Below, in pieces: positions 6,447-36,838 of a DNA stretch of 64,000 nucleotides. The position numbers were made by a program, and so were the translations under genes. The notes beneath the pieces were generated by a model that saw only the letters and a program-made list of their open reading frames with translations, was not told the DNA's origin and ran no database searches. Positions within the stretch are counted from its first letter, which is position 1, and every line of letters begins with the position of its first letter. The DNA is taken from assembly GCA_037481815.1 (NCBI GenBank), contig JBBFKX010000001.1:192001-256000 (forward strand), given 5' to 3'. Source of the DNA: a candidate division WOR-3 bacterium (GTDB lineage Bacteria; Hydrothermota; 32-111).

Positions 6447-6783
6447 AAAAAGATATTATTCGATAAAGGAGGTTTCTCAGATTACAGGACTGAGAAGTTA
6501 TGTTTTAAGATACTGGGAGACCGTTTTCCCAAAGTTAAAACCGATGAAACATTCGGTTAATGGAAGAAGGATGTATACTGAAAAGGATATTGAAACAGTT
6601 AAAAAAATTAAAGAATTGTTGTATGAAAAAAAATATACGATAAAAGGAGCGAATGAAGTTATGAATTCAAAAGTTGAAATCGTTCAACTCAACCTTGATT
6701 TTGAAAATGGAAAAAGTTTTTTGAAAGGGGAGGTTAAGAGGAAGTTAAACGAAGTAATTAACCTATTAAGGGGGGAAAAATGA
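6430..6783 (+). CDS. MerR-family transcriptional regulator
   Basis: YSIKEVSQITGLRSYVLRYWE...GRRMY MerR HTH. Confidence 0.88.
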   Translation: MKTEYRKRYYSIKEVSQITGLRSYVLRYWETVFPKLKPMKHSVNGRRMYTEKDIETVKKIKELLYEKKYTIKGANEVMNSKVEIVQLNLDFENGKSFLKGEVKRKLNEVINLLRGEK

Positions 6784-7817
6784 GAAATAAGATAAGAATC
6801 TATCTTCTTGATGATAGCATTACTGTTACAACATTTTTGAGTAAGTCCTTGACTTCACTCGGTTATGTTGTCTACGCTGATAACGACCCAAACAAGTGCA
6901 TCAAAAGGATAAAGGAATTTTTACCTGATATTATTATTCTTGACATAGATTTGAACGAATTCAACGGAATCGATATCTGTCGTGAGATACAGGAAGATAA
7001 ACAACTCAAAGAGATACCTGTCATATTCCTTTCACATCTGACAGATACTGCAACAGTTGCTGAAGGACTGGAGGCAGGAGCGGTTGACTACATTTACAAA
7101 CCGATAGATATCAATCAACTCGATTCAAGAATAAAAATCATTTTGAAGATGATTGAAGATATGAAGGATAACATAAAACTCGCAAAGATGAACATAATAA
7201 AAGCTTCAGTGATCACGATGCATCATGAGTTAAATCAGCCACTTTCTGTGATCCTGCTTTCAACGGAGATGCTTGAAAAAAAATTGGGTAACAAGTTAAC
7301 AGAGAAAGAAAAAAGATTGATTGAAAGGATAAAAAACAGTTTGAACAAGATAAACGATATTTTGAAAAGGTTTGCTGTTGTTCATGAAAATGATCCTGAA
7401 CTTATTCCATACACCGATGATTCTCAGAAGATCAAACTTCCACCATCATCAAAAACCGAAAAAGTTCTAATAATAGATGATGAAAAAGAGGTAAGGGAAT
7501 CGATTATCGATGTTTTAAACGAAGAGGGAATAGAAACTATTCAATCTGAGAATATAAAGGATGCTATAGAGATTATAGAAAAAGGTAAGGAAAAAATTTC
7601 GATGATATTCTGTGATATAAGAATAAAGAATGAGTCGGGATCAGAAGTTTTTCATCTTGTAAGAAAAAATTATCCAGATATCAAGTTTGTTTTTATCACA
7701 GGGTTTTCTATCCCCGCTGAAGTTAAAAGAATAATCAGAGAGTTTAAAATACCACTTTTGAAAAAACCGTTTTCAAGAAGATCAATACTTTCCTTATTAA
7801 AAAAGATGGATCAGTAG
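6780..7817 (+). CDS. REC-HisKA(DHp)-REC signalling protein without an ATPase domain
   Basis: N-terminal receiver (LLDD, ILDI, YKP), H-box HHELNQPL, C-terminal receiver (IIDD, FCDI, KKP). Confidence 0.8.
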   Translation: MRNKIRIYLLDDSITVTTFLSKSLTSLGYVVYADNDPNKCIKRIKEFLPDIIILDIDLNEFNGIDICREIQEDKQLKEIPVIFLSHLTDTATVAEGLEAGAVDYIYKPIDINQLDSRIKIILKMIEDMKDNIKLAKMNIIKASVITMHHELNQPLSVILLSTEMLEKKLGNKLTEKEKRLIERIKNSLNKINDILKRFAVVHENDPELIPYTDDSQKIKLPPSSKTEKVLIIDDEKEVRESIIDVLNEEGIETIQSENIKDAIEIIEKGKEKISMIFCDIRIKNESGSEVFHLVRKNYPDIKFVFITGFSIPAEVKRIIREFKIPLLKKPFSRRSILSLLKKMDQ

Positions 7818-9382: not shown

Positions 9383-9399
9383 TGGCATAAATAATGTTA
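9383..9399 (+). promoter_or_regulatory. Putative sigma-54 promoter (variant -12, GG-N10-GT)
   Basis: TGGCATAAATAATGTTA upstream of response regulator 9428. Confidence 0.45.
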
Positions 9400-9427
9400 T
9401 CAATTTAGTTAGTAAAAAGGAGAAATT

Positions 9428-10147
9428 ATGAAAATAGGAATTCTTGAAGACAGTGAAACTTTCGCTAACGCTTTGAGAGATATTCTTGTTCTAAAAAAAC
9501 ATGTTGTTCATCTTTTATACAAACATCCTTTGATGATCAGTAAAACTGATATAGAAAACCTTGATGTTTTAATCCTTGACATTTATTTGGGTTCAAATTA
9601 TGGAATCAACATTATAAATCAGTTGAAAAAAATGGATCTTTTCTTAACAATTGTTATCGTTACAGCAAGTCCAAATCAGAACTTGAAAGATATATTGAAA
9701 GGACTAGGTGTTCATTATTTGATCGAAAAACCTTTCCACTATGAGGAACTTGATGGTATTTTGAAGGAAATCGAAGAGTTTTATTTTATAATCGAAAATT
9801 TTCTCAAAGCGGAAGATCATGAAAAAAATATATTACTCTTAACCGATACTCCAAACGTCAAAATATTGAAAAGATTAAAGAGGTTGAAAATAGAGGAGTT
9901 TCTTGATTTTGATTTTGAAAATGATCAAGATAACAATTATTACCTCGAATTTTCATTACTTAACAACAGTGATCATATTTATAAAATAATTGATAAATTA
10001 AAATTTATTCAAAAAAGAAAAAAAATAGTTTTACATTTAAAAAACAGTATAGAAGAATTAAAATCTGAGTGTGATAAAAATCGAATTTTGAAAAATTTTA
10101 TACATGAAAAATGTTATCTTGTATCGAATTCCTTGAAAGTGTCATAA
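9428..10147 (+). CDS. Response regulator (REC + unknown C-terminal domain)
   Basis: ILEDS, ILDIYL, VTAS, EKPF receiver motifs. Confidence 0.8.
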   Translation: MKIGILEDSETFANALRDILVLKKHVVHLLYKHPLMISKTDIENLDVLILDIYLGSNYGINIINQLKKMDLFLTIVIVTASPNQNLKDILKGLGVHYLIEKPFHYEELDGILKEIEEFYFIIENFLKAEDHEKNILLLTDTPNVKILKRLKRLKIEEFLDFDFENDQDNNYYLEFSLLNNSDHIYKIIDKLKFIQKRKKIVLHLKNSIEELKSECDKNRILKNFIHEKCYLVSNSLKVS

Positions 10148-10275
10148 AAAAATGACTCTGTAATCCTTTTTTTCAAAAGCTTAAATCTCATAAATATAAT
10201 ATTTAAATCAAAAATTTTTGCTATTTACAAAAAAATTGATTTGTCATAAAATCATAACATAATAGATTTATGACA
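10140..10275 (+). promoter_or_regulatory. Repeated TGTCATAAA elements (candidate activator or operator sites)
   Basis: TGTCATAAAA at 10140 (within GTCA-N8-TGAC) and at 10242; inverted copy TTTATGACA 10267-10275, just upstream of the sigma-54-like site. Confidence 0.5.
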
Positions 10276-10283
10276 CTTATATT

Positions 10284-10300
10284 TGGCACTTTTCTTGTTA
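10284..10300 (+). promoter_or_regulatory. Putative sigma-54 promoter
   Basis: TGGCAC-TTTTC-TTGT-TA, one mismatch to TGGCAC-N5-TTGC; an NtrC-type activator is encoded in the same operon. Confidence 0.65.
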
Positions 10301-10325
10301 TAAACAATATGGAAAAGGAGGAAAA

Positions 10326-11753
10326 GTGCAAAAGAAGATGAAGGTGTTGATCATCGATGATAACAGAGATCTTGCGAACTCATTGAAGGATGCACTTAAC
10401 AATTATTCTTCTGATTATGAATGTTTGGCTTTTTATGATGGAAATTCAGCGATGAATTATATTACCAACAATCCACCAGATGTTATTTTTACAGATATAA
10501 TTCTTCCCGATCAATCGGGTTTATCAATATTGAAAAGTGTGAAAGAAATGGATAGTGACATTCAGGTGATAGTTATGACAGCATATGCCTCACTTTCAAC
10601 TTCAATTGAAGCTTTGCAGTATGGTGCTTTTGATTATATACCAAAACCCTTACATATAAATCAGGTAATGAATGCTTTGAAGAGTGCAATAAATAAAAGA
10701 AACAGTTTACTTGAAAATAAAAAAATAATTGCTGATCTTATAAATAAAAAGGAAAAAAATCTCGAAAGCGATGAGTCAAGGAAGGTTATAGAAAGGTTGA
10801 TCCTCTTAAAGCAGTTCCAGAAAAAGATTTCTAAAATCAATGATATCCAGGAATTATTTAAAATTTCTTACCTTGAATTCTCAAAGATATTTTTAACTCA
10901 GTTTGTTTATTTCTTTTTGAAGGAGAGTAAAGGTTTTAAGAATATATGTGGGCCCTCTGTTGGAGAATTCAAGATTGGTGATATTGTTGATCCAAAATTG
11001 CCAATCTTTTTTGTTCCAGTTAAAAACAATATAGGATGTATTTTTGCTGGTTCAAAATCGATGACCTCAGTTATGAGTTATGAAAATGATATAATTGGAG
11101 TTGTTTATTTTAAAAGAGAAAATGATTTTGTTGATACGGATCTTGAAATCGCGGAAGTACTTTCGTTTGTGCTTGCAAACAAATTCTCTGAAATAAAATT
11201 GAACAAAAAATTGAAAACCACAAAATATGGACTTATTTATACATTGCTTACATTAACTGGACTTTCGGACAGTAATCAAAAAACCATGATAGAAAGAAGA
11301 GCAAAATACTGTGAAGATTTTGCAAAATTTTTAAAATTTGATGAAGAAAAAGTGGAAAAGATTAAATTCTCTTCAATGCTTTTCAATATCATACAGTCAT
11401 TTGTTAAGGACAAAAAAAATGGTTCCAAAGAGGTTTCAGAAAAATTTAAAAGTGTGATAGATGATATAGAATTTTTGAGAGAACTTGAACCGATAATCGA
11501 ATCGATAGGTGAAAACTACGATGGATCAGGATTCCCTAAAAGATTGAAAGGAGATGATATACCTGTTGAATCGCAGGTTATAAAATTGGTTCATACCTAT
11601 CTTCTTATGGTAGAAAACAAAAACTATAGGGATGGTGTTGGAAAAAGAAACGCTTTTGAAAACCTTGAAAAAATGTCTGAAAAGTATTTCAAAAAGAGTT
11701 TGGTTGAAAAATTTATAACTTTTTTGGAGCAATATGAAAGAACAAATTCTTGA
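10326..11753 (+). CDS. Response regulator REC + GAF-like + degenerate HD-GYP domain
   Basis: REC (IIDD, FTDI, PKP); C-terminal ENYDGSGFPKRLKGDDIP resembles HD-GYP, but the HD and HH metal ligands are absent. Confidence 0.8.
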   Translation: MQKKMKVLIIDDNRDLANSLKDALNNYSSDYECLAFYDGNSAMNYITNNPPDVIFTDIILPDQSGLSILKSVKEMDSDIQVIVMTAYASLSTSIEALQYGAFDYIPKPLHINQVMNALKSAINKRNSLLENKKIIADLINKKEKNLESDESRKVIERLILLKQFQKKISKINDIQELFKISYLEFSKIFLTQFVYFFLKESKGFKNICGPSVGEFKIGDIVDPKLPIFFVPVKNNIGCIFAGSKSMTSVMSYENDIIGVVYFKRENDFVDTDLEIAEVLSFVLANKFSEIKLNKKLKTTKYGLIYTLLTLTGLSDSNQKTMIERRAKYCEDFAKFLKFDEEKVEKIKFSSMLFNIIQSFVKDKKNGSKEVSEKFKSVIDDIEFLRELEPIIESIGENYDGSGFPKRLKGDDIPVESQVIKLVHTYLLMVENKNYRDGVGKRNAFENLEKMSEKYFKKSLVEKFITFLEQYERTNS

Positions 11754-13834
11754 TTATTTAAAGGGATTCCATGAAATATTTAGGGAATACGAGAAAGAGA
11801 GTGAAAATAAAAATTTTGACCTTATAAGGTTTTTTACCAACCTTGTTTCAGAAAAAAAAAATAAAAGTTGATGAAAAACTTGCAAAATTGATTGAGCAGA
11901 ATTTTAAAATCACATATCTTGATGCTGATAAGATTCAAATCACAGAAGGTTTATTATCTTTATTTATTCCGACATATATAAAAAAGAATAGATTTTTACC
12001 TTTTGAGGTTTCCCAGAAAAAGATTAAAATTATCACCGATAATCCTTTTAATCTTGAACTTATAAAAGATATTCAATTCATAACGAATCTTGATGTCGAT
12101 TTCTATATAACAACTACTGAAAGTTTGAACAAAAAGTTTATAGAAATTTTTGGACAGGAAAAATTTTCCTATGAACTTGATGAAAATGTCTTAAATGTTG
12201 ATGAGTATGAAACTCTTGAAGAAGAAGAGGCTTTAGAAGATGATGAACTGAACGCAAAACCTATCGTAAGGCTGATAAACTCAATAATAATAGATGCTAT
12301 CAAGTTGAACGCTTCAGATATTCATTTTGAACCTCAGTCAAACAATCTTGTCGTAAGATATAGAATTGATGGATTTTTACAGGAACATTTAAGGTTACCA
12401 AAAAAAATAGAAAAAAGAGTTATCTCGAGAATTAAAATAATGGCAAAGATGGATATAACGATTACAAGAAAAGCACAGGATGGAAATATACAGATTGTAG
12501 TATCACAAAAAGATATATCTTTAAGAGTGTCAACGATTCCAATAATGGATGGTGAAAAAATAGTTATTAGAATTCTCGATAAAAGCAAAATCAAAGTTTC
12601 TCTTGAACAACTCGGTTTAACAGAAGAAAATATAATGATAATCAGAAAGAATGCCAATAAATCTCAGGGAATAATTCTAGTAACCGGTCCCACCGGAAGT
12701 GGGAAAACAACAACTCTATACTCAATCTTACAGGAACTCGATTATAAACATTTGAACATCACAACAATAGAGGATCCTATCGAATATACGATTAAAGGTA
12801 TAAACCAGACTCAGATAGATCCGAAAAATAATGTAACGTTTTCTTCCGCATTAAGAACTCTATTAAGACAGGATCCGAATGTGATACTACTTGGAGAAAT
12901 TAGAGATACCGAAACAGCACAAACAGCTTTCAAGGGTGCAATAACAGGACACCTTCTGCTTTCAACCCTTCATACGAACAGTGAGGTTTCAACTTTGATA
13001 AGATTGAGGGATCTCGGAGTTGAACCGTATCTGATTTCTGATGCTTTACTTGTTGTTGTTGCACAGAGGATTGTAAGAAAAGTTTGTAAGTTCTGTTCAA
13101 CGAAAGTACATCCTGACGAAAGAGTAAGAAAAATTTTAAAAGTGGATGAAAATTTTGAAATATATCAGGAAAATAAAAATGGATGTGAAAAATGTAATTA
13201 TACTGGATTTTCGGGAATCATTGGTATCTTTGGAGTACTTGAAATAGATCAAAAGTTGAGAGAACTTATAGAAAAAGAATCGAACCTAAACGAGATAGTT
13301 TCATATCTTAAAAAAATAAACTATAAAACAGTATTTGATGATGGACTTGACAAGGTGAAAAATGGTATAACGACTTTCAGTGAAATTGAAAGGGTTCTTG
13401 ATGTTGATCGTTTTATAATTGAAAACAGTGTAATCTTCGAGACAGACTTTAAAGAAGGAAGTGAAAAAAAACGGATCCTTGTTGTTGATGATGTTAAAAC
13501 TATAAGAACTGTAATATGTGCACTCTTTAAATCTGAAGGATTTGAAACATTTGAAGCTGATAATGGTGTCAATGCTCTTGAAATTTTAAAAAACAATAGA
13601 ATAGATCTGGTGATAACGGACCTTTCAATGCCACAGATGGGAGGATTTGAACTGCTTGAAAAGATAAAAAACGATGAAAATTTAAACAGTATTCCGGTTG
13701 TAGTTTTGACTTCAAAATCCGATTCTGAAAATGAGATTGAAGGACTGTCAAAAGGAGCTGATGATTATATCCCCAAACCGATAGATCCTCAAAAGGTATT
13801 GCTAAGGGTAAAAAATATATTAAAAAGGAGTTGA
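11734..13834 (+). CDS. PilB/GspE-family secretion ATPase fused to a C-terminal receiver domain; apparent +1 frameshift at A10 (11852-11861), main frame 11843-13834
   Basis: ASDIHFEP, LRVST, Walker A GPTGSGKTT, TIEDPIEY, Walker B LLGEIRD, GHLLLSTLH, CxxC...CxxC, then REC (VVDD, ITDLSMP, PKP). ATG 11734 has a GGAG SD; its frame stops at 11871 but joins the main ORF if one A is removed. Confidence 0.88.
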
Positions 13835-15099
13835 TGTTGATTGCAAAAACAGTACAAAACATTATTGATATTCTTGAGAAAAATTATCATATTAACATTA
13901 CTCCTTCTTTAAACATCAAAATTCAGGATCTATACAATCTGGGAAAGATTCAAAACGAAGGTGATTTTGAAAAGATACTTTTTGCTCTTTACAATTATCA
14001 GAATATATTTTTTGAAAATGAAGAGATCTACAAATTAACAAAGAATCTTCTTGAAACAATCGATAATGATAATTTGAATATACTCATATTCTCTTCCGAT
14101 ATCGGCAGTTCACTCTTTTCCTTTGTAATTGATTGTGAACTTATCTTGAAAAATCTTAAAAAAAGAAAAAATGTTAACTATTTTGCCGTTTATCCATCAT
14201 TTTTTATCGTTGAAAGAATTAAGAATAACAGAATCGAGTACCAACAACTCATTAAAGCATCAGATGCTCAGTTGAAATATTTTATAGATATGATTGAAAA
14301 TTATATTTTAAGAAACGATATTTTAAACAGAGTTAATTTTGTGGTAGCAAATCCTTTCAACAATTCTTTAAGGAGTGAAAATTTTGATCTTATTATAGTT
14401 AACAATTTTTCAAAAATCTTTTTAAAAGACAAATTACAAAACTTTACGAAAGAAACATACAGGTTACTTAAAAATGGCTCTTATCTTATATGTGATTTTA
14501 AAGAAACCAATATTTTTTCTTCAGGAATTTTTGAGCAGTTAAACTATGAAGGGTATTACTATTTCAAAAAACCAGAGAGTGATGAATTTATAGTATCAGA
14601 TTATACTTTTGAAGATGCCTTGAACTTTTTCAAAGAAAAAAAATACAATGAATCGTTAGGAATATTGCAAGCATTGTTAGGGAAAGAAGAAGGTAATAAT
14701 ATCGAGATTCTGAAGTTGATGCTTCTTATTTACACAAGGTTAAATGACATTTTAAAAATAGAGTTTCTTGAAAAACAACTTGAAATAAATGAGATAAAAG
14801 ACCCAGATTTTGATTTCATCCTTGGTACGTTCTATTTTAATAAACTCAACTATTCGATTTCAAAACTTTATTTTCAGAAAACTCTATCTTCGAACCCGAA
14901 CAATATATATTCATTGTATTATCTTGCCCTGATTGATAAAATGGAAGGTAAGAAAAAATCATCGGTTGAAAATTTTAGAAAAATATTAAAATTTGTTAAG
15001 GAAAACAACTTTTATATTCCCATGATATATACAAAAGATATATCAACAGATATGATAATGTATATCGCTGAAAGTGAAATAGAAGGGGAGGAGAAATGA
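13834..15099 (+). CDS. Degenerate CheR-like methyltransferase with C-terminal TPRs
   Basis: RVNFVVANPF..FDLIIVNN...YRLLKNGSYL resembles the CheR C-terminus; TPR-like helices from about aa 260. Confidence 0.55.
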   Translation: MLIAKTVQNIIDILEKNYHINITPSLNIKIQDLYNLGKIQNEGDFEKILFALYNYQNIFFENEEIYKLTKNLLETIDNDNLNILIFSSDIGSSLFSFVIDCELILKNLKKRKNVNYFAVYPSFFIVERIKNNRIEYQQLIKASDAQLKYFIDMIENYILRNDILNRVNFVVANPFNNSLRSENFDLIIVNNFSKIFLKDKLQNFTKETYRLLKNGSYLICDFKETNIFSSGIFEQLNYEGYYYFKKPESDEFIVSDYTFEDALNFFKEKKYNESLGILQALLGKEEGNNIEILKLMLLIYTRLNDILKIEFLEKQLEINEIKDPDFDFILGTFYFNKLNYSISKLYFQKTLSSNPNNIYSLYYLALIDKMEGKKKSSVENFRKILKFVKENNFYIPMIYTKDISTDMIMYIAESEIEGEEK

Positions 15100-16157
15100 A
15101 ACAGATTCTTGTGTTTCAACTTGATAATCAGGAGATTTTAAAATCAGAAGAACTGAACAGACAGAATATTACTTTTGAAGAAGATTTAAAAAATCTTGAA
15201 ATGATAAAAAATGAAATAAAAATCGATCTTATTTTAACTTCATCAAAAAACCTTGATCTTGAAAATGGTAGGGGGTTCTTGAAAAAATTGTTTAACTGGA
15301 AAATCCCGGTTCTTGTTGTATTAGAAAAAGAAGAGAGTATCGATAAATACAAAGATCTATTTGAAGTGCCTTTTATTGACTTTATCTATGAAAACAATTT
15401 TGAAAACGATTTTGAATTCAAAATGGAAAAAATAATTGGAGTTAAAAATTATATAGTTTCATGTGAAAGTATGTCTTCTCTTCAACATGAGATAGGAAAA
15501 ATTTCAAAATTGTCTGTTGCTGGTGAACTCATATCAAGTATAAGTCATATGATCAATAATCCAGTAACTTCAATCGTTTTGCAACTTGATATGTTAAGGA
15601 TGGATAAAAATTGTCCAAAGGAACTCCATAAAAAAATAGATATGATCGAACAGAATGTCGACAGAATAGTTTCGATAGTATCAACTGTAAGAGAATTAAA
15701 ACTTGGAGTTTCTGAAAAAATGGAACTTGTCAACATTGAAGAGGAAACTGTAAAATTTTTCCCGATAATCAAAGATTATTTTATCAACCACAATGTTGAA
15801 ATTGAATACACATATGATAAAAAGATTCCACCAGTAAAGTTGCCATGTGGGTTTTTAAAATACATTTTTCTTGAGTTGATTCTTCTTTTGTTCCACAGGT
15901 GTGAAAAGGTCAAAGGAAACAGGATCATGGTGAGTTTTAAACTTTTAGAGGATAGCATCTATATCATTTTTAATACAAATTTTAAAACTGGTATAGAGAT
16001 GCTGTTTGAAAATGTAGAAGATGAGAGTAGCAGATCTGATGTTCTTACGATCAATTCGATTAAGTTTGATATAGAAAATGTTTCAGGTAAATTGATTTTT
16101 AAAGATTACGATTCGGGATCTGAGATAAAGGTCATTTTACCGTTACCTGCTATATAG
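15096..16157 (+). CDS. Pseudo-receiver + HisKA + degenerate HATPase protein
   Basis: H-box ISHMINNP is retained; no recognisable N, G1 or G2 boxes in the C-terminal domain. Confidence 0.65.
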   Translation: MKQILVFQLDNQEILKSEELNRQNITFEEDLKNLEMIKNEIKIDLILTSSKNLDLENGRGFLKKLFNWKIPVLVVLEKEESIDKYKDLFEVPFIDFIYENNFENDFEFKMEKIIGVKNYIVSCESMSSLQHEIGKISKLSVAGELISSISHMINNPVTSIVLQLDMLRMDKNCPKELHKKIDMIEQNVDRIVSIVSTVRELKLGVSEKMELVNIEEETVKFFPIIKDYFINHNVEIEYTYDKKIPPVKLPCGFLKYIFLELILLLFHRCEKVKGNRIMVSFKLLEDSIYIIFNTNFKTGIEMLFENVEDESSRSDVLTINSIKFDIENVSGKLIFKDYDSGSEIKVILPLPAI

Positions 16158-16165
16158 GAGGTTTT

Positions 16166-17551
16166 ATGAAAATGAAAAATATACTCATAGTTGACGATGA
16201 TCCTTTTATTCTCCAATCGGTTGGAGAGATGCTTGTAGAAAATAAGTATAATGTTTATACATCATCAAATGGTAAAGAAATGTTTCAGATTTTGGAAAAG
16301 AATTCAGTTGATTTAATACTTCTTGATGTGAAGTTGCCTGATAGAACTGGAATAGAATATCTACCAGAATTGAAACATTTTTTTCCAGATATCCCCATAA
16401 TAATTATTACAGGTAATGCGGATATAAATGATGCCGTGAAAGCGATAAAAATGGGTGCATTTGATTATCTAAAAAAACCCTTTAAAGGAAAGGAATTACT
16501 GGTGAATATAGAAAAAGCTTTGAAATGGAACGAACTGATGATAAAAAATGAAATTTTACAGGAACAGGTTGAAAAGGAGTTCTCATTTCAGGGAATAATT
16601 GGAAAAAGTGATAAGATGAGAGATCTGATAAAAATGCTAAAACAGGTATCCAAGACAGATTCGAATGTTCTGATTACAGGTGAAAGTGGAACAGGTAAAG
16701 AACTCGTTGCAAAAGCGATACATTATTCTGGTAAAAGAAAAAATAGTCCATTTGTCCCAATAAACTGCGCATCTTTACCTGAAACATTGCTTGAAAGTGA
16801 ACTTTTTGGATATGTAAAAGGTGCTTTTACGGGTGCCTACAATAATAAAAACGGACTTTTCAAAGTTGCTGATATGGGAACAATATTCCTTGATGAAATT
16901 GGGGATATGCCTTTAAGTTTGCAGGCAAAAATTTTAAGAGTTATTGAGAGTGGTGAGTTCACTCCACTTGGTTCCACAAATGTGATAAAGACGGATGTAA
17001 GAATAATCTCGGCCACAAATGTTAATTTAAGAGACAGAATCCTTGAAAATAGATTCAGAGAGGATTTGTATTACAGGTTAAACGTAGTAAATATAAATAT
17101 ACCTCCTTTGAGGGATAGGAGAGAAGACATACTGCTGATAGCCGAGCATTTTCTTGAAAAGTACTGCATAAAGATGAACAAAAAGATTAAAGGTTTTTCG
17201 GAAGGTGTAAAAGAGGTCTTTTTAAGATACGATTGGCCGGGAAATGTCAGGGAACTTGAAAATGCGGTTGAGAGCAGTTGTGCTCTTACAACGGGTGATG
17301 TTATAGATGTTAAAAACCTTCCATCACATCTTTTTGGTAATGTCATGCATTCTAACAAAGTTGATTTTATTCCAATCAACAGACCTTTGAAAGAAACGAT
17401 GGATTATTATGAAAGGGAATATCTTGTTCAACTTTTAAAATTTTGCAATGGGAACATAACGAGGGCTTCTCAGATAGCACAGATCGCAAGGCAAAATCTT
17501 CATTCAAAATTAAAACTTTATAACATTAATGTAAAGGATTTTAGAAAATGA
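16166..17551 (+). CDS. Sigma-54-dependent response regulator (NtrC/AtoC family)
   Basis: REC, GESGTGKE, ESELFG, GAFTGA, FLDEIG, WPGNVRELEN, C-terminal HTH. Confidence 0.95.
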   Translation: MKMKNILIVDDDPFILQSVGEMLVENKYNVYTSSNGKEMFQILEKNSVDLILLDVKLPDRTGIEYLPELKHFFPDIPIIIITGNADINDAVKAIKMGAFDYLKKPFKGKELLVNIEKALKWNELMIKNEILQEQVEKEFSFQGIIGKSDKMRDLIKMLKQVSKTDSNVLITGESGTGKELVAKAIHYSGKRKNSPFVPINCASLPETLLESELFGYVKGAFTGAYNNKNGLFKVADMGTIFLDEIGDMPLSLQAKILRVIESGEFTPLGSTNVIKTDVRIISATNVNLRDRILENRFREDLYYRLNVVNINIPPLRDRREDILLIAEHFLEKYCIKMNKKIKGFSEGVKEVFLRYDWPGNVRELENAVESSCALTTGDVIDVKNLPSHLFGNVMHSNKVDFIPINRPLKETMDYYEREYLVQLLKFCNGNITRASQIAQIARQNLHSKLKLYNINVKDFRK

Positions 17552-20523
17552 AAAATTTTTTGAAAAATTTATTTTTTAATTTCAACACGAACTATTTTTC
17601 AAAATATTCAACAAAAGAAATTTTTTTCAGGATCAGATACAATTTCCTTTTGTTAATTCTAATACTCGGAATAACAGATACATTCTATTTTTCTTTAAAA
17701 CATTTGTTCCCATACATAAGTCCAATAGAGTTTTTAACACACTTTATCTCTTTGGTAATATGTCACATTCTTCTTGTAATACTTGTAAAAAAGAAAAATG
17801 TTGATCTCGTTGGAAGAATTCTAGTTTTTGTTCTTTTTCTTGTAGGTTTATACACATTGTTTTTTACACAGCTTGATTCTTCAAGAAGGGCTTTTGTTTA
17901 TATTTTTCCGCTTCTATCATTTCTTTCGATACCATTCTGGGAAAGTTTTGTTTTCTGTTTTTTAATTTTAATATTTATCATTTTAAGAATTCCAGTGTTC
18001 TCAAAAATTTTCACATATGATAGGTCTCTACACTTCAGTTTCTTTTTTACATACCTCTCAATATTTTTTGCCACTTCTATATTTAAGTATTTTGTTGAAC
18101 TGTTTCAAAGAATAGCCCTAGAAAACGAGGAAAGGCTGGATTATGAGAATAAAGTTTTAAAAGTTTTAAAAGATAATTTTCAGAGAAAGACCGAAGAGTT
18201 TGAAAAACTTTTTGCAGTTGTTCCAAGTGCTGTTTTTATAGCAGATAAAGACAGAAGAATTTTATCAATAAACAAAAGGGCACTTGAGATACTCAAATAT
18301 AAAGAGGAAGAACTGGTTGGAAAAGAATGTACATTTTTTGCTAATGAGCCTTGCAGAAGTGGCTGTGGCCTTATAAATAAAATGGATGATAATCCGATAT
18401 ATAACAAAGTATGTACGGTAATAACAAAGGATGGAAATGTAAGAATAATTTCAAAAAATGCACAGGTTTTAAGAGATGATCAAAATAATTTTACTGGTTG
18501 TATTGAGGTTTTTGATGATATTACAGAAAAATTCAATTATGAAAGAGAGATAGAAAAATTGTTGTTCTCTGTTAATCAAAGCCCTGCAAGTATTGTAATA
18601 ACCGATACGGAAGGTAATATAGAATATGTTAACAAAAAATTCACAGAGGTTTCAGGTTATACTTTTGAAGAAGTCAAAGGAAAAAATCCAAGAATTTTAA
18701 AATCAGGCGAAAAGAGCAAGGAGGAATACAAAGAGTTGTGGGATACGATAAAATCTGGAAAGGAATGGAGGGGAGAATTTCATAATAAAAGAAAAGATGG
18801 AACTCTCTATTGGGAACTTGCTCTGATTGCACCAATAATTGATAAAGATGGAAAGATAATAAATTTTGTTGCGGTTAAAGAGGATATAACTGAAAGAAAA
18901 AGGATGGAACATGAACTTTTTGAATCGAAATTGAAAGCAGAGCAGGCAACAAAAGCAAAATCTGTTTTTCTTGCAAATATGAGTCATGAGATCAGAACAC
19001 CTCTTAATGGAATAGTTGGAATGGTTGATCTACTTCTTGGAACAAAACTCGATAAAGAACAGGAAGATTATGTAAAAACGATAAAATATTCTTCTATAAC
19101 TTTATTAACATTGATAAATGATATTCTTGATTTTTCAAAAATAGAATCTGGGAAGATGAGTTTTGAAGAGATAGAATTTGATCTTTATCAACTTGTTGAA
19201 CTATCTTTAAAACCTCTCGTTTTTGAAATATCGAAAAAAGGTCTTGAAGTTCTTATCGATATAGATAAAGATGTTCCAAGATATATAAAATCTGATCCTG
19301 TAAGGTTGAAACAGGTTTTACTCAACCTTGTTGGAAATTCTTTAAAATTCACAGAAAAAGGGGAAATACTCGTTGAAGTAAAGAGGGTAGAAAAAAAAGG
19401 AAACGATGTGATATTAAAGTTCATCGTTTCAGACACAGGAATAGGTATAGATAACGATAAAATAGAAAAAATATTTCAACCTTTTGAACAGGCGGATAAT
19501 TCTATAACAAGAAAGTTTGGAGGAACGGGTCTTGGAACAACCATTTCGAAATACATTGTGGAAAAATTGGGTGGAGAGATATATGCTCTTTCTCCTTCAA
19601 AACTTTCTAAAGATGGAGGTAGAGGAAGAGGAAGTGAATTTGGATTCACTATAAAAACTGTTCAGGTGTCAGCTGATGATATCAAGAAAACATTTTCTAA
19701 AATCAAAGGAATTGAAAGGGTTCTTGTTATAGATGATAATAAATTGAATTTAAAGATAATGCATAACATGTTATCGGTCTGGAATGTCGAGTGTGAGTGT
19801 CTAACATCTTTTAAGGATTTTACAAAGAATTTGAATGATTATGATATTGTATTTGTCGATTATATTATGCCTGAAATTGATGGACTTGAAGTAGCAAAGA
19901 TGATCAAAGAAAAGAATAAAAAGATTAAAGTCATCATCTTTACATCTTCAATATTAAAAGAGGATAAAGAAAGATTTGATACTATCGGTGTTGATGGATA
20001 CCTTCAGAAACCTGTTTCTCAATCATCTTTGTATGATTTGCTTATTTCAATTTTTGAGAGTAAAGAACAGGAAAAGGAAGTAAAGGATACAAAAGCGCAG
20101 GTTGACAAAAAAGACATTAAAATTCTTGTTGCTGAGGACAACACGGTTAATCAGAAGGTAGCGAAAAACATGTTGAACAAACTTGGTTATGATGTTGATA
20201 TCGCTGAAAACGGAGAAAAGGTTTTAGAGATGATGAAAGAAAGGTCATATGATCTTGTTCTTATGGATGTACAGATGCCTGTAATGGATGGTTTAACCAC
20301 AACAAGAATCATAAGAGAGGTTGAGGATGATATCAAAAACAACAGGAATCTTAGTTATAATCTTATGATTAAGAAAATTCCTGTTCCAATAATTGCCTTG
20401 ACAGCGAACGCTATGAAAGAGGATAAAGATGTATGTCTTGCCAACGGTATGAATGATTATTTGCCAAAACCTCTAAATCTGAACGAGTTAAAGGATATTG
20501 TTGAAAAGTATACAAAGAGTTGA
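17548..20523 (+). CDS. Membrane-bound hybrid sensor histidine kinase (TM-PAS-PAS-HisKA-HATPase-REC-REC)
   Basis: About 5-6 N-terminal TMs, two PAS domains, FLANMSHEIRTPL, DTGIG, GGTGLG, two receivers. Confidence 0.94.
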   Translation: MKNFLKNLFFNFNTNYFSKYSTKEIFFRIRYNFLLLILILGITDTFYFSLKHLFPYISPIEFLTHFISLVICHILLVILVKKKNVDLVGRILVFVLFLVGLYTLFFTQLDSSRRAFVYIFPLLSFLSIPFWESFVFCFLILIFIILRIPVFSKIFTYDRSLHFSFFFTYLSIFFATSIFKYFVELFQRIALENEERLDYENKVLKVLKDNFQRKTEEFEKLFAVVPSAVFIADKDRRILSINKRALEILKYKEEELVGKECTFFANEPCRSGCGLINKMDDNPIYNKVCTVITKDGNVRIISKNAQVLRDDQNNFTGCIEVFDDITEKFNYEREIEKLLFSVNQSPASIVITDTEGNIEYVNKKFTEVSGYTFEEVKGKNPRILKSGEKSKEEYKELWDTIKSGKEWRGEFHNKRKDGTLYWELALIAPIIDKDGKIINFVAVKEDITERKRMEHELFESKLKAEQATKAKSVFLANMSHEIRTPLNGIVGMVDLLLGTKLDKEQEDYVKTIKYSSITLLTLINDILDFSKIESGKMSFEEIEFDLYQLVELSLKPLVFEISKKGLEVLIDIDKDVPRYIKSDPVRLKQVLLNLVGNSLKFTEKGEILVEVKRVEKKGNDVILKFIVSDTGIGIDNDKIEKIFQPFEQADNSITRKFGGTGLGTTISKYIVEKLGGEIYALSPSKLSKDGGRGRGSEFGFTIKTVQVSADDIKKTFSKIKGIERVLVIDDNKLNLKIMHNMLSVWNVECECLTSFKDFTKNLNDYDIVFVDYIMPEIDGLEVAKMIKEKNKKIKVIIFTSSILKEDKERFDTIGVDGYLQKPVSQSSLYDLLISIFESKEQEKEVKDTKAQVDKKDIKILVAEDNTVNQKVAKNMLNKLGYDVDIAENGEKVLEMMKERSYDLVLMDVQMPVMDGLTTTRIIREVEDDIKNNRNLSYNLMIKKIPVPIIALTANAMKEDKDVCLANGMNDYLPKPLNLNELKDIVEKYTKS

Positions 20524-35800: not shown

Positions 35801-36838
35801 GCAGCACAATTATTTAGAGCAACCGTTCCAACAGCAGTTTATCTTACTGGCAACTTCTGGGTTGGTGTTTATGCTGTAACAAACGCATCAACAACACCAC
35901 CAAACAGAAGATCATATATGCTTTCAGACACAATAGGTGGAACATATTCCTACTATGCTTCAGCAATCACAGGTCCTTGGACAAATATGTCACCCGATGG
36001 AGATCTTATCATAAGAGCAGAAATCGAATATCCAACAACACCCGCAGGGTCAGGAACGTTCTATGTAAAGAATACTGATTCAGGTTCAGTTTTGCCATTT
36101 GATGTTACAGGAATAACAAAAGCAAGAAATTCTTCGTGGATTGTTTCAATAACCCCTACAACAGGAACAGTGAATGTTGGAGATTCTTTGGGTGTTACAG
36201 TTCTTGTTGATACAGCCGGTCTTTCTTATGGAACAACATACTATGATACTCTTTTGATTGCAACTTCAGCGGATCTATCAAAAGCTGTAACGGTCAGGTT
36301 ACCAGTAACATTGATTATGCCATCCAATACAGGTATAATGTCAACCTCTTTGGTGGCAACAGTTTCTGGAAAAGATGTTGTATTAAAATGGAATTCTAAC
36401 AATGAAACTGCAAAAACTTGGATAATTGAAAGAGACAATGTTATAGTTGGTACAGTACTTGGAAAAGATAACATGACTTTTGTTGATGAAAATGTGTCAA
36501 CCGGAACACATACTTATAGGGTTGGGTTCAAAGTGAATGATCAGATCGTTTATTCAGATGCAACAACTGTTCTGGTGAGCAAAATTTCAACAAGTTTATC
36601 TGTAAGAAAAATGGTTGACAATGAGAATGTTTCCATAAGATTTTCAAATGGTGAAACTCAAAAGGTTACAATTGAAATCTTCGATCTAATGGGAAGAAAA
36701 GTTTCTACTTTATTTAATGGAATCTTAAATGAAGGTGTTTACAACTATAAAGTTGATAGCCTTTCAAAAGGTGTATATTTTGTGAAAGTTGTTGCTGGCA
36801 ACGAAAATCTTAAAGAAAGATTTGTAATTATAAAATAA
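32801..36838 (+). CDS. Secreted S8 subtilase (KP-43-like) with T9SS-like C-terminal domain
   Basis: Signal peptide; catalytic triad VDDTG / GHGSHT / GTSMSTP; SAGN; C-terminus IFDLMGRKV...SKGVYFVKV...FVIIK. Confidence 0.93.
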   Translation: MLKRKLSMLLLILFVFTIFYAESMIRLKVAKFSTDFEPPSFANLGLERTQVKGDYDYYVVQFNDLVRQSYKDEIKKLGGEIFDYIPDNAFIVKLSNKSFEQIKGKKFVKFIQIWQPAYRIAPNLISDKQEPLKGDLPGKVNLLVGLFAGEDVELFHSKLKNLSDITILAGPNPVRISVPAEKANDIAKYLANQVEVYWVERDYPVELHNAWSRWILQTFDTLNMKAAADSWKSQLTISTAADSVRLPFYAKGIYGQNQIVGVDDTGCDWDNIYFRDPSGTKPVYDKDKDRVCETTGTHRKIVAYNVHADTFDLNSSGHGSHTCGSVAADSMNSGLPSVTAYARVMGMAPLAKLAFTDIGNSSDGLVLPTNYQDIYQWAYNAGARIHTSSWGQSYGGYSSYTLNAQQIDSCAWDKKDFLMFRSAGNSNLDRDSVNTPATAKNIVCVGASESGFGSGATTWAVNGTSTRNELLDVAEFSSHGPTKEGMMRPDLVGTGGWYIWSVDSDGNLASNNTGITYMGGTSMSTPTVAGFGALVRQYFTEGWYPSGTKNAADAFTPSAALIKAVLINSTRNSPGAYSISTINNSGTQNAPSQGQGWGRIVTDDAIYFAGDVRDLKVWDVTSGFTAAGQYHEYTINTGPSTTEYIKIVLCWTDYPAAVGADPLVVNNLNLTVTAGGNTYLGNVFGTNARSTTGGSADVENVTEVVWLDPIPNSTITIRVTAANVPNGPQPYALVATGDFVTTAPAGKILYKKSVILDSPTAVLVDGKLNNGETTDMNIWVVNNTGASQSNITAKLREGSPYITNLDSTGTYGTLANGDSTYSVYRFQVANNTPDGTSIPCTLFVSYGTKVDTSAFTLTVTGVRIASLSTSQLVFDFSTKKSTTEVLSVNNQTTKNIYLGDYYKDIKLVNLSENVINTKGIWDTLKWDDAETEGAAGWYGVSYFANKFSVAQGCSLRAIWWGRMIESGLARTDTLYVWTDNAGVPGTLLGKYVASGLTTGGAAQLFRATVPTAVYLTGNFWVGVYAVTNASTTPPNRRSYMLSDTIGGTYSYYASAITGPWTNMSPDGDLIIRAEIEYPTTPAGSGTFYVKNTDSGSVLPFDVTGITKARNSSWIVSITPTTGTVNVGDSLGVTVLVDTAGLSYGTTYYDTLLIATSADLSKAVTVRLPVTLIMPSNTGIMSTSLVATVSGKDVVLKWNSNNETAKTWIIERDNVIVGTVLGKDNMTFVDENVSTGTHTYRVGFKVNDQIVYSDATTVLVSKISTSLSVRKMVDNENVSIRFSNGETQKVTIEIFDLMGRKVSTLFNGILNEGVYNYKVDSLSKGVYFVKVVAGNENLKERFVIIK

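Follow-up and report, generated by a model that had tools for sequence, protein, structure and literature searches.

PilB and GspE motor ATPases (structures 5TSG, 5ZFR, 3JC8, 4PHT and 4KSR) have in common an MshEN-type N-terminal domain, an N2D and a CTD, Walker A and B motifs, Asp and His boxes, arginine fingers and a tetra-cysteine zinc module. Known control of PilB acts by cyclic di-GMP (c-di-GMP) at the MshEN domain or through separate partner proteins. In Synechocystis, response regulators of the PATAN type reportedly act on the pilus motor in trans. DrdR of Xanthomonas campestris is described as binding PilB and PilT, with raised activity (PMC13507683). Here, we analyse gene C, one of seven neighbouring genes (A to G) in a 64,000-nucleotide stretch of a candidate division WOR-3 genome (assembly GCA_037481815.1, contig JBBFKX010000001.1, positions 192,001 to 256,000; hereafter the window). 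Gene C has all of the above features of PilB and GspE and carries in addition a C-terminal receiver domain (REC). As with DrdR, a two-component input would reach PilB, but the receiver is fused to the motor whereas DrdR is a separate protein. Gene C further differs from PilB and GspE by its setting among signalling genes, away from pilC, and by the loss of the equivalent of EpsE R441.

A receiver and this ATPase are also joined in one chain in Gmet_3473 of Geobacter metallireducens, listed as REC-MshEN-T2SSE in Supplementary Table 4 of Wang et al. (2016; PMC5013675). An earlier sequence-only reading of the window had started from the premise that PilB/GspE motors carry no receiver, which this listing shows to be wrong as a rule. 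In that table the receiver is N-terminal, and the order of gene C, MshEN-T2SSE-REC, does not appear in it. In Acinetobacter baylyi, several extension ATPases including PilB and TfpB serve one machine, as may be the case here; the available text of that report describes no receiver or phosphorelay for TfpB (PMC11656802).

From comparative sequence evidence, we propose that the PilB-REC protein would be an extra extension motor switched by phosphorylation. It would receive phosphate from the hybrid kinase G through a histidine phosphotransfer protein (Hpt) encoded elsewhere, share the PilC of the existing machine and assemble pilins of its own. Our confidence in this proposal is about even.

A PilB-type motor with a C-terminal receiver

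The window belongs to a genome of 1.58 Mb (G000; about 31% GC, 95% complete). Eight WOR-3 genomes contain the seven-gene block, five in genus g1 (G000 to G004) and three in genus g5 (G009, G012 and G013). Wider comparisons used sets of 14 genomes for the family, 19 for the class and 272 for WOR-3. Gene C and the site of its frameshift are:

11734..13834, + strand: gene C, MshEN-type N-domain, PilB/GspE ATPase and C-terminal receiver, 700 codons with a +1 frameshift (Pfam, alignment)
11852..11861, + strand: A10 run with an extra base, one of 7 runs of at least 10 A/T in the genome

All three domains of gene C score above their Pfam cut-offs (MshEN; T2SSE, PF00437, 419 bits against a curated cut-off of 24.9; REC, 105 bits). 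Residue numbers are those of the 663-residue open reading frame (ORF; 11843-13834), not of the 700-codon gene. The Walker A/B motifs, Asp box, His box, Arg fingers and zinc cysteines are kept (K288, E310, E352, H370/H377, R228/R243, C415/418/448/451) and the receiver shows the intact motif of a phosphorylatable domain (D549/D550, D593, T623, K645). Every residue that McCallum et al. report as fully conserved is present, namely those of Walker A/B, the catalytic Glu, two Arg fingers and the Asp-box Glu (PMC5424180). The Arg that follows the zinc module, equivalent to EpsE R441, is replaced by Ile459. The tandem RLGxxLxxxGLV motif of c-di-GMP-binding MshEN domains (PMC5013675) is absent in genus g1, where the N-terminus reads MKEQILDYL, and only a loose K/R-I-G is seen in genus g5.

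The 663-residue frame taken by the sequence-only reading as the PilB gene exists as an ORF but is the tail of a 700-codon gene, and homologues have 700-707 residues. Starting from the ATG at 11734, which has a GGAG ribosome site, the frame matches that of four relatives until the A10 run. The extra A is present in the contigs of run X1, a possible source of the window, while those of X2, X3 and X4, which stem from three other studies, have one base less and stay in frame. In the sequences compared, the strain or its assembly is frameshifted by +1 after about codon 42. Full-length protein could arise in this strain only by slippage at the A10 run, unless the extra base is an assembly error.

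As judged from domain searches, MshEN-PilB-REC is a widespread family, present in WOR-3, Desulfobacterales, Omnitrophota and other groups. A search with gene C gave 823 matches; among the 120 listed, 96 distinct proteins hold both domains according to our own seeds. Source labels of these proteins include Omnitrophota, Desulfobacterales, Calditrichaeota, Acidobacteria and Elusimicrobia, and the closest named homologues are labelled WOR-3. A query made of the junction region matched at least 23 of the 272 WOR-3 genomes, at least 21 of them across both domains, and G014 adds one; these counts are lower bounds because a search of five genomes with the junction region overlooked fusions known from them. 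At E 1e-180, queries from Desulfobacterales and Omnitrophota had matches in 21 of 251 genomes of the order and in 16 of 251 genomes of the phylum, respectively, a few of the matches being partial.

Residues were compared between 155 fusion rows (database proteins and locus ORFs, near-duplicates kept) and 82 plain PilB/GspE rows. The Walker A Lys, catalytic Glu, Walker B Glu and second Arg finger are found in all 155 fusions and the first Arg finger in 154. In the receiver, the Asp, the Thr/Ser and the Lys are each kept in 154 rows, the Asp of the GADDY motif in 150 and the alpha5 Arg in 151. Of the two roles put forward by the sequence-only reading, a motor switched by Asp phosphorylation fits this comparative evidence. 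The other role, that of a repurposed ATPase serving as a signalling hub, is less likely, since at the Walker A Lys, the catalytic Glu and each of the two Arg fingers at most one of the 155 rows deviates.

The same reading had pointed to GIIGIFG after the zinc module and to DGN in place of DGR as hints of altered function. Both are indeed read in gene C, but they differ in meaning. The DGN belongs to a family-wide relaxation, the Arg of DGR being present in 87/155 fusions against 80/82 plain PilB/GspE. The other change is real and confined to a clade: the paired replacements of GR by GI/GV and of E by G occur in 12 rows, which form exactly the clade of this block (FastTree support 0.998), and two other rows have Gln for Arg. 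In the FastTree tree, the fusion groups apart from the three other PilB proteins of the genome, deep nodes being weak. The first pilB of the genome's pil operon (G000:C2:238704-240434) also lacks the Arg (GM..E), alone among the 82 plain rows.

The clade-confined change could fit a modulator in place of a stand-alone motor; with weakened nucleotide contacts, it would join or compete with housekeeping PilB hexamers at PilC, phosphorylation toggling a brake or a primer. The Arg that is lost in these 12 of 155 rows is a nucleotide contact in EpsE, three neighbours of gene C are pseudo-enzymes (see below), and ATPase-ATPase contacts are reported for Acinetobacter PilB and TfpB, which act on one machine (PMC11656802). 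We nevertheless consider a modulator unlikely, because the universally conserved catalytic residues are all kept, dedicated pilins track the gene and, at three Omnitrophota loci, no PilB-type gene other than the fusion lies beside pilC.

Other arrangements were observed in the family. Proteins with two receivers (REC-PilB-REC) are found at L041 (G033), L228 (G142), L042 and L229-L232. They follow an Hpt, together with an H-NOX-like gene and a hybrid kinase in some cases and with a REC-GGDEF gene in the others. At L224 (Omnitrophota) and L227 (G232), PilB-REC is first or central in a chemosensory cassette with CheR-TPR or CheR, CheW, CheA and CheB. In G008 (L040:6918-8849), the PilB-REC frame is open and the whole tetra-cysteine zinc module is deleted. 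With this open frame, and with the split of ntrC in G003 explained by an NN gap, recurrent frameshifts in the block were ruled out.

Gene context and candidate partners in trans

The sequence-only reading reported no pilus or secretion machinery nearby. This is true within the window but not for the genome, which has a full pil set elsewhere, nor for relatives, where the fusion adjoins pilins or pilC. Family searches of the whole genome found four PilB-type and two PilT-type ATPases, one PilC, one secretin and seven pilin leaders. The type IVa pilus machine is complete and present once; its PilC and secretin, like each of the seven N-methyl pilin matches, are encoded outside the window. From ORF translations, a pil operon has the order pilB1-pilB2-pilT-pilC-pilS-pilR-pilA-pilA-pilD, and pilMNOPQ and minor pilins are also present. 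The search for pilC, pilA and pilQ elsewhere in the genome that the reading had advised was thus fruitful, with pilC, two pilA and pilMNOPQ recovered. A search of the genome for flagellin found none.

Genes within 4 kb were compared by phmmer, with our own seeds, between 55 fusion loci and 75 plain PilB/GspE loci. The fusion loci are the window, 14 loci from a first search, 20 of 24 Desulfobacterales and 14 of 16 Omnitrophota matches and 6 further WOR-3 loci; the controls are 79 loci from a whole-alignment contig scan minus 4 fusions. A kinase or Hpt is found at 39 fusion loci versus 14 plain loci, an Hpt at 18 versus 0 and a c-di-GMP enzyme at 22 versus 2. The figures for pilus genes are PilC 3 versus 60, pilin 10 versus 39 and PilT 0 versus 16. 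These counts suggest that the fusions have left the pil operon for signalling operons. At three Omnitrophota loci (L214, L217 and L220), PilB-REC stands directly before pilC, followed by a pilin.

With PilC near only 3/55 fusion loci and GGDEF, EAL or HD-GYP genes near 22/55, one may also think of a hub independent of filaments, whose receiver would be a phosphate sink or shuttle and whose nucleotide state would feed sigma-54 and c-di-GMP outputs. A report whose title speaks of M. xanthus PilB signalling to exopolysaccharide production (PMC5544727) goes in the same direction. Such a hub seems quite unlikely to us, as the receiver is C-terminal and retains its Tyr/Phe as well as its alpha4-beta5-alpha5 residues, and as pilin pairs travel with the gene. 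These residues mark allosteric receivers.

Kinase G has no Hpt of its own. A stand-alone Hpt of 116 residues is encoded at G000:C3:154315-154665. Among the 14 family genomes, Hpt proteins other than CheA occur in exactly the 11 with the fusion and were not found in the three without it. They are stand-alone in the eight block genomes and fused to a kinase on the contig of the fusion in G006-G008. In G005, G010 and G011, these searches found no fusion, no Hpt and neither of the two pilins described below.

Two pairs of genes, which track PilB-REC, may provide the pilins of the motor. Each encodes a single-helix membrane protein with a pilin-like tail and a pilin; related partners elsewhere carry an N-terminal B-box-like zinc finger. 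The first pair (C1:135466-136406) is homologous to the pair that ends the fusion operon in G006 and G007 (203 bits for the pilin). Its pilin is found in 10 of the 272 WOR-3 genomes, each of which also has the fusion, and belongs to the fusion operon in G006 and G007. The second pair (C1:531976-532985) comes with a sigma-54-type box of the GT variant, and its pilin is found in 7 of the 19 class genomes, again all with the fusion. A single-helix membrane partner of this kind, often paired with a pilin, is found at 12/55 fusion loci versus 0/75 controls.

In the proposed path, kinase G would autophosphorylate and its own receiver would pass the phosphate to the stand-alone Hpt. The Hpt would then phosphorylate Asp593 of PilB-REC, and probably also F, A and B. 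Phosphorylated receivers might pair via their alpha4-beta5-alpha5 faces and thereby stabilise the ATPase hexamer, a step suggested by the conserved GADDY and alpha5 Arg residues and by the precedent of EpsE-Hcp1. The GADDY motif and the alpha5 Arg have a role in dimers of OmpR/PleD-type receivers. The engineered C-terminal fusion EpsE-Hcp1 is described as a stable hexamer with raised ATPase activity (PMC5061722). The motor would engage the one PilC and assemble the pilins of the two pairs. F would switch on the sigma-54 promoters, both those in the block and those at the pilin pairs, closing the loop, and E, which has lost kinase residues and kept a phosphatase Asn, would reset the relay. The dead proteins B and D might act as adaptors. 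A swap of motor and pilin is also conceivable, in which the phosphorelay would switch on a second motor through its fused receiver and this motor, with a dedicated membrane-anchored, pilin-like partner, would make the one machine build a different filament; we view it as a doubtful possibility, to be kept in mind.

Several points weigh against the proposed motor. Forty-five of the 55 fusion loci have neither pilin nor pilC within 4 kb and eight of the 55 are the seven-gene block itself. Of the 12 matches to the single-helix membrane partner, 3 are the seeds themselves. The seeds for this partner and for Hpt were taken from fusion loci, which biases them toward the fusion set, and the genomes compared are kin, so that the co-occurrence counts are not independent and describe a pattern, not a statistic. 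In G005, an assembly gap falls exactly at the block, with contigs ending 224 bases after gene A and in a DUF362 gene, which makes a clean loss of the block uncertain; its Hpt and pilins would lie elsewhere. G008 has the fusion, without zinc module, and an Hpt, and neither pilin. In G000, the first pilin pair is preceded by a degenerate sigma-54 box and gene C is frameshifted. The Arg equivalent to R441 is gone from the clade of this block; since R441 contacts adenine and ribose in EpsE (PMC5061722), ATP turnover by PilB-REC may be weak. Finally, the 663-residue ORF, which is short of 37 N-terminal residues, scores below the NCBIfam equivalogs for PilB (TIGR02538, 505 versus 676) and GspE (TIGR02533, 509 versus 630) and reaches 423 versus a cut-off of 850 for TfpB. 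Gene C appears PilB-like in its working parts, yet departs from PilB in its equivalog scores, its MshEN motif and its R441 position.

Pseudo-enzymes and sigma-54 promoters of the block

Besides gene C, the block comprises the following features:

9383..9397, + strand: sigma-54 -24/-12 promoter before gene A, GG-N10-GT variant (-24 box conservation, rpoN)
9428..10147, + strand: gene A, receiver with Asp, Thr and Lys kept, plus about 120 C-terminal residues that do not align to REC
10240..10298, + strand: conserved TGTCA..TAACA..TGACA repeats (seen by eye), then a second sigma-54 promoter at 10284-10298
10326..11753, + strand: gene B, REC, GAF-like middle (by eye) and HD-GYP lacking metal ligands (alignment)
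13834..15099, + strand: gene D, degenerate CheR fold plus TPR, pseudo-methyltransferase (hhalign to three CheR, P 96.8, E 2.7e-10)
15096..16157, + strand: gene E, pseudo-REC, DHp His kept (HMINNP), dead catalytic domain (Pfam, model, alignment)
16166..17551, + strand: gene F, NtrC-type sigma-54 activator, Asp, Walker A and GAFTGA intact, Fis-type HTH
17548..20523, + strand: gene G, membrane hybrid kinase PAS-PAS-HisKA-HATPase-REC-REC, H/N/G boxes and both Asp intact, no Hpt

The seven ORFs span 9428-20523 on the + strand, and the last five overlap or sit at most 9 bases apart. Pfam finds REC in A, REC and HD_5 in B, a weak methyltransferase/CheR match with TPR in D, HisKA only in E, REC-sigma54 AAA-HTH in F and PAS-PAS-HisKA-HATPase-REC-REC in G. 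The run of domains given by the sequence-only reading holds for all seven genes, save for the GAF of B, which Pfam does not find and which is GAF-like by eye only. The C-terminal part of gene A was considered as a second, degenerate receiver and rejected (hhalign to a REC profile, P 0.5). Recurrence of the neighbourhood, a check which that reading had recommended, was found: the order A to G is identical in the eight block genomes of the two genera, with different flanks in g5.

A -24 box lies 39-47 bases 5' of A in seven of the eight genomes (TGGTA in the eighth) and 5' of B in all eight; in genus g5 the -12 element is a canonical GC, in genus g1 a GT. In g1, the GT at -12 is confined to boxes of this module, and other sigma-54-type boxes of the same genome have GC. 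A relaxed sigma-54 pattern, picked after the sites were seen, matches the window three times versus 0.36 expected, so conservation across genomes is the better test, and it bears out the sigma-54-like sites noticed earlier. The third match (36308-36322, - strand) is inside a 1345-residue ORF with no gene start near and is probably due to chance. Since the gene order and the -24 boxes are conserved and rpoN is present in G000, the block is, on these comparisons, a real unit under sigma-54 promoters. That gene F is their activator is what we infer, several other response regulators of similar size being present in the genome.

Three neighbours of PilB-REC are, by their motifs, pseudo-enzymes: an HD-GYP, a CheR-TPR and a histidine kinase. 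They are full-length and conserved across the two genera at 35-46% identity. In gene B, the residues that we take to be the HD and HHE metal ligands are lost in 8/8 sequences, with FN/YN-type and xEN residues in their place; two intact HD-GYP paralogues elsewhere in G000 were used to check the motif. As aligned, the HD-GYP of gene B is catalytically dead.

In gene D, the position that presumably corresponds to the catalytic Arg98 of Salmonella CheR is Glu, Ser or Lys in 8/8 sequences, and that of Tyr235 is Tyr in 1/8. Gene D shares with WspC-type CheR-TPR proteins the CheR fold, the C-terminal TPR and a cluster of multidomain response regulators; it differs by the loss of the Arg in 8/8 and by a block without CheA, CheW or receptor. 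CheR-TPR proteins with a C-terminal TPR are reported to conserve both catalytic residues (PMC3447774). At L224, an intact-looking CheR-TPR, two CheW, CheA and CheB follow PilB-REC, which suggests an origin for gene D. A complex predicted between gene D and the ATPase-REC part of gene C (residues 130-663) scored 0.00, a value that counts neither for nor against contact.

Gene E is modelled as REC-DHp-CA (pLDDT 73, pTM 0.45), with the REC-kinase LvrB (8VC9, E 4e-14) as the best fold match. In 14/14 homologues the motifs HMINNP and KY(I/V)FLE are read and the N box is lost; there is no HATPase_c match. The acidic residue after the His and the N and G boxes are missing, whereas the DHp His next to a degenerate CA domain is of the ChpT/Spo0B type. 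These two traits are common to ChpT, Spo0B and PhyT/PhyP, to which gene E adds an N-terminal pseudo-receiver and a Met after the His. According to Willett and Kirby, kinase activity requires the acidic residue that follows the His, and phosphatase activity the Asn four residues on (PMC3510030). With the Asn at H+4 kept and the acid gone, gene E reads as a phosphatase; it is likely, from these motifs, a phosphatase or a ChpT-like phosphotransferase.

As a phosphotransferase of the ChpT/Spo0B/PhyT type, gene E could itself take the place of the distant Hpt, making the block self-contained while the output would still be the motor. The kept His, the dead CA domain in 14/14 homologues and the REC-DHp-CA model would agree with this, as would pseudo-kinases described as acting as phosphotransferases (PMC9981736, PMC5898713) and the presence of E in genomes whose kinase has no fused Hpt. 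The same eight genomes all have the stand-alone Hpt, the His is followed by Met and the Asn at H+4, a mark of phosphatase activity (PMC3510030), is kept, which makes a relay through E very unlikely in our view.

The dead CheR, HD-GYP and kinase, together with the +1 frameshift in C and the degenerate sigma-54 box at the first pilin pair, might also betray a module that is decaying or phase-off in G000. The block would then be what remains of an ancestral chemosensory cassette and do little today, as the intact-looking CheR-TPR, CheW, CheA and CheB after PilB-REC at L224 could suggest. We find this extremely improbable: the six ORFs other than C are open and 84-98% identical to those of G001/G002, the dead enzymes keep their full length and their conservation across two genera, and near-identical strains of three other studies have an intact frame.

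Outside the block, a REC-HisKA-REC protein of 345 residues is encoded at 6780-7817 on the + strand, behind engA-plsY-merR, and is found in 11 of the 14 family genomes. Its H box (HELNQP) is intact and a catalytic domain is lacking; it could be a stand-alone phosphotransfer or phosphatase protein. It was excluded as a block member because it is unlinked in g5 and also present in G005.

Significance for pilus motor control

No paper on an MshEN-PilB-REC fusion was found in the literature searched, most subscription journals lying outside the search, and the available text of a 2024 review of PilB control contains no fused receiver. The present analysis adds that an Hpt and pilin pairs in trans track the fusion, that B, D and E are, by their motifs, pseudo-enzymes and that gene C is frameshifted in G000.

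A motor that is itself a response regulator would offer a one-protein test of switching through hexamer assembly. It also bears on why genomes hold several PilB paralogues for one machine. Because the locus points to a likely kinase, Hpt, phosphatase and pilins, one could reconstitute the whole path in vitro or in a laboratory host that has a similar pilus system. If the swap of motor and pilin is true, the type of pilus would be set by phosphorylation of the motor itself, across several uncultured phyla.

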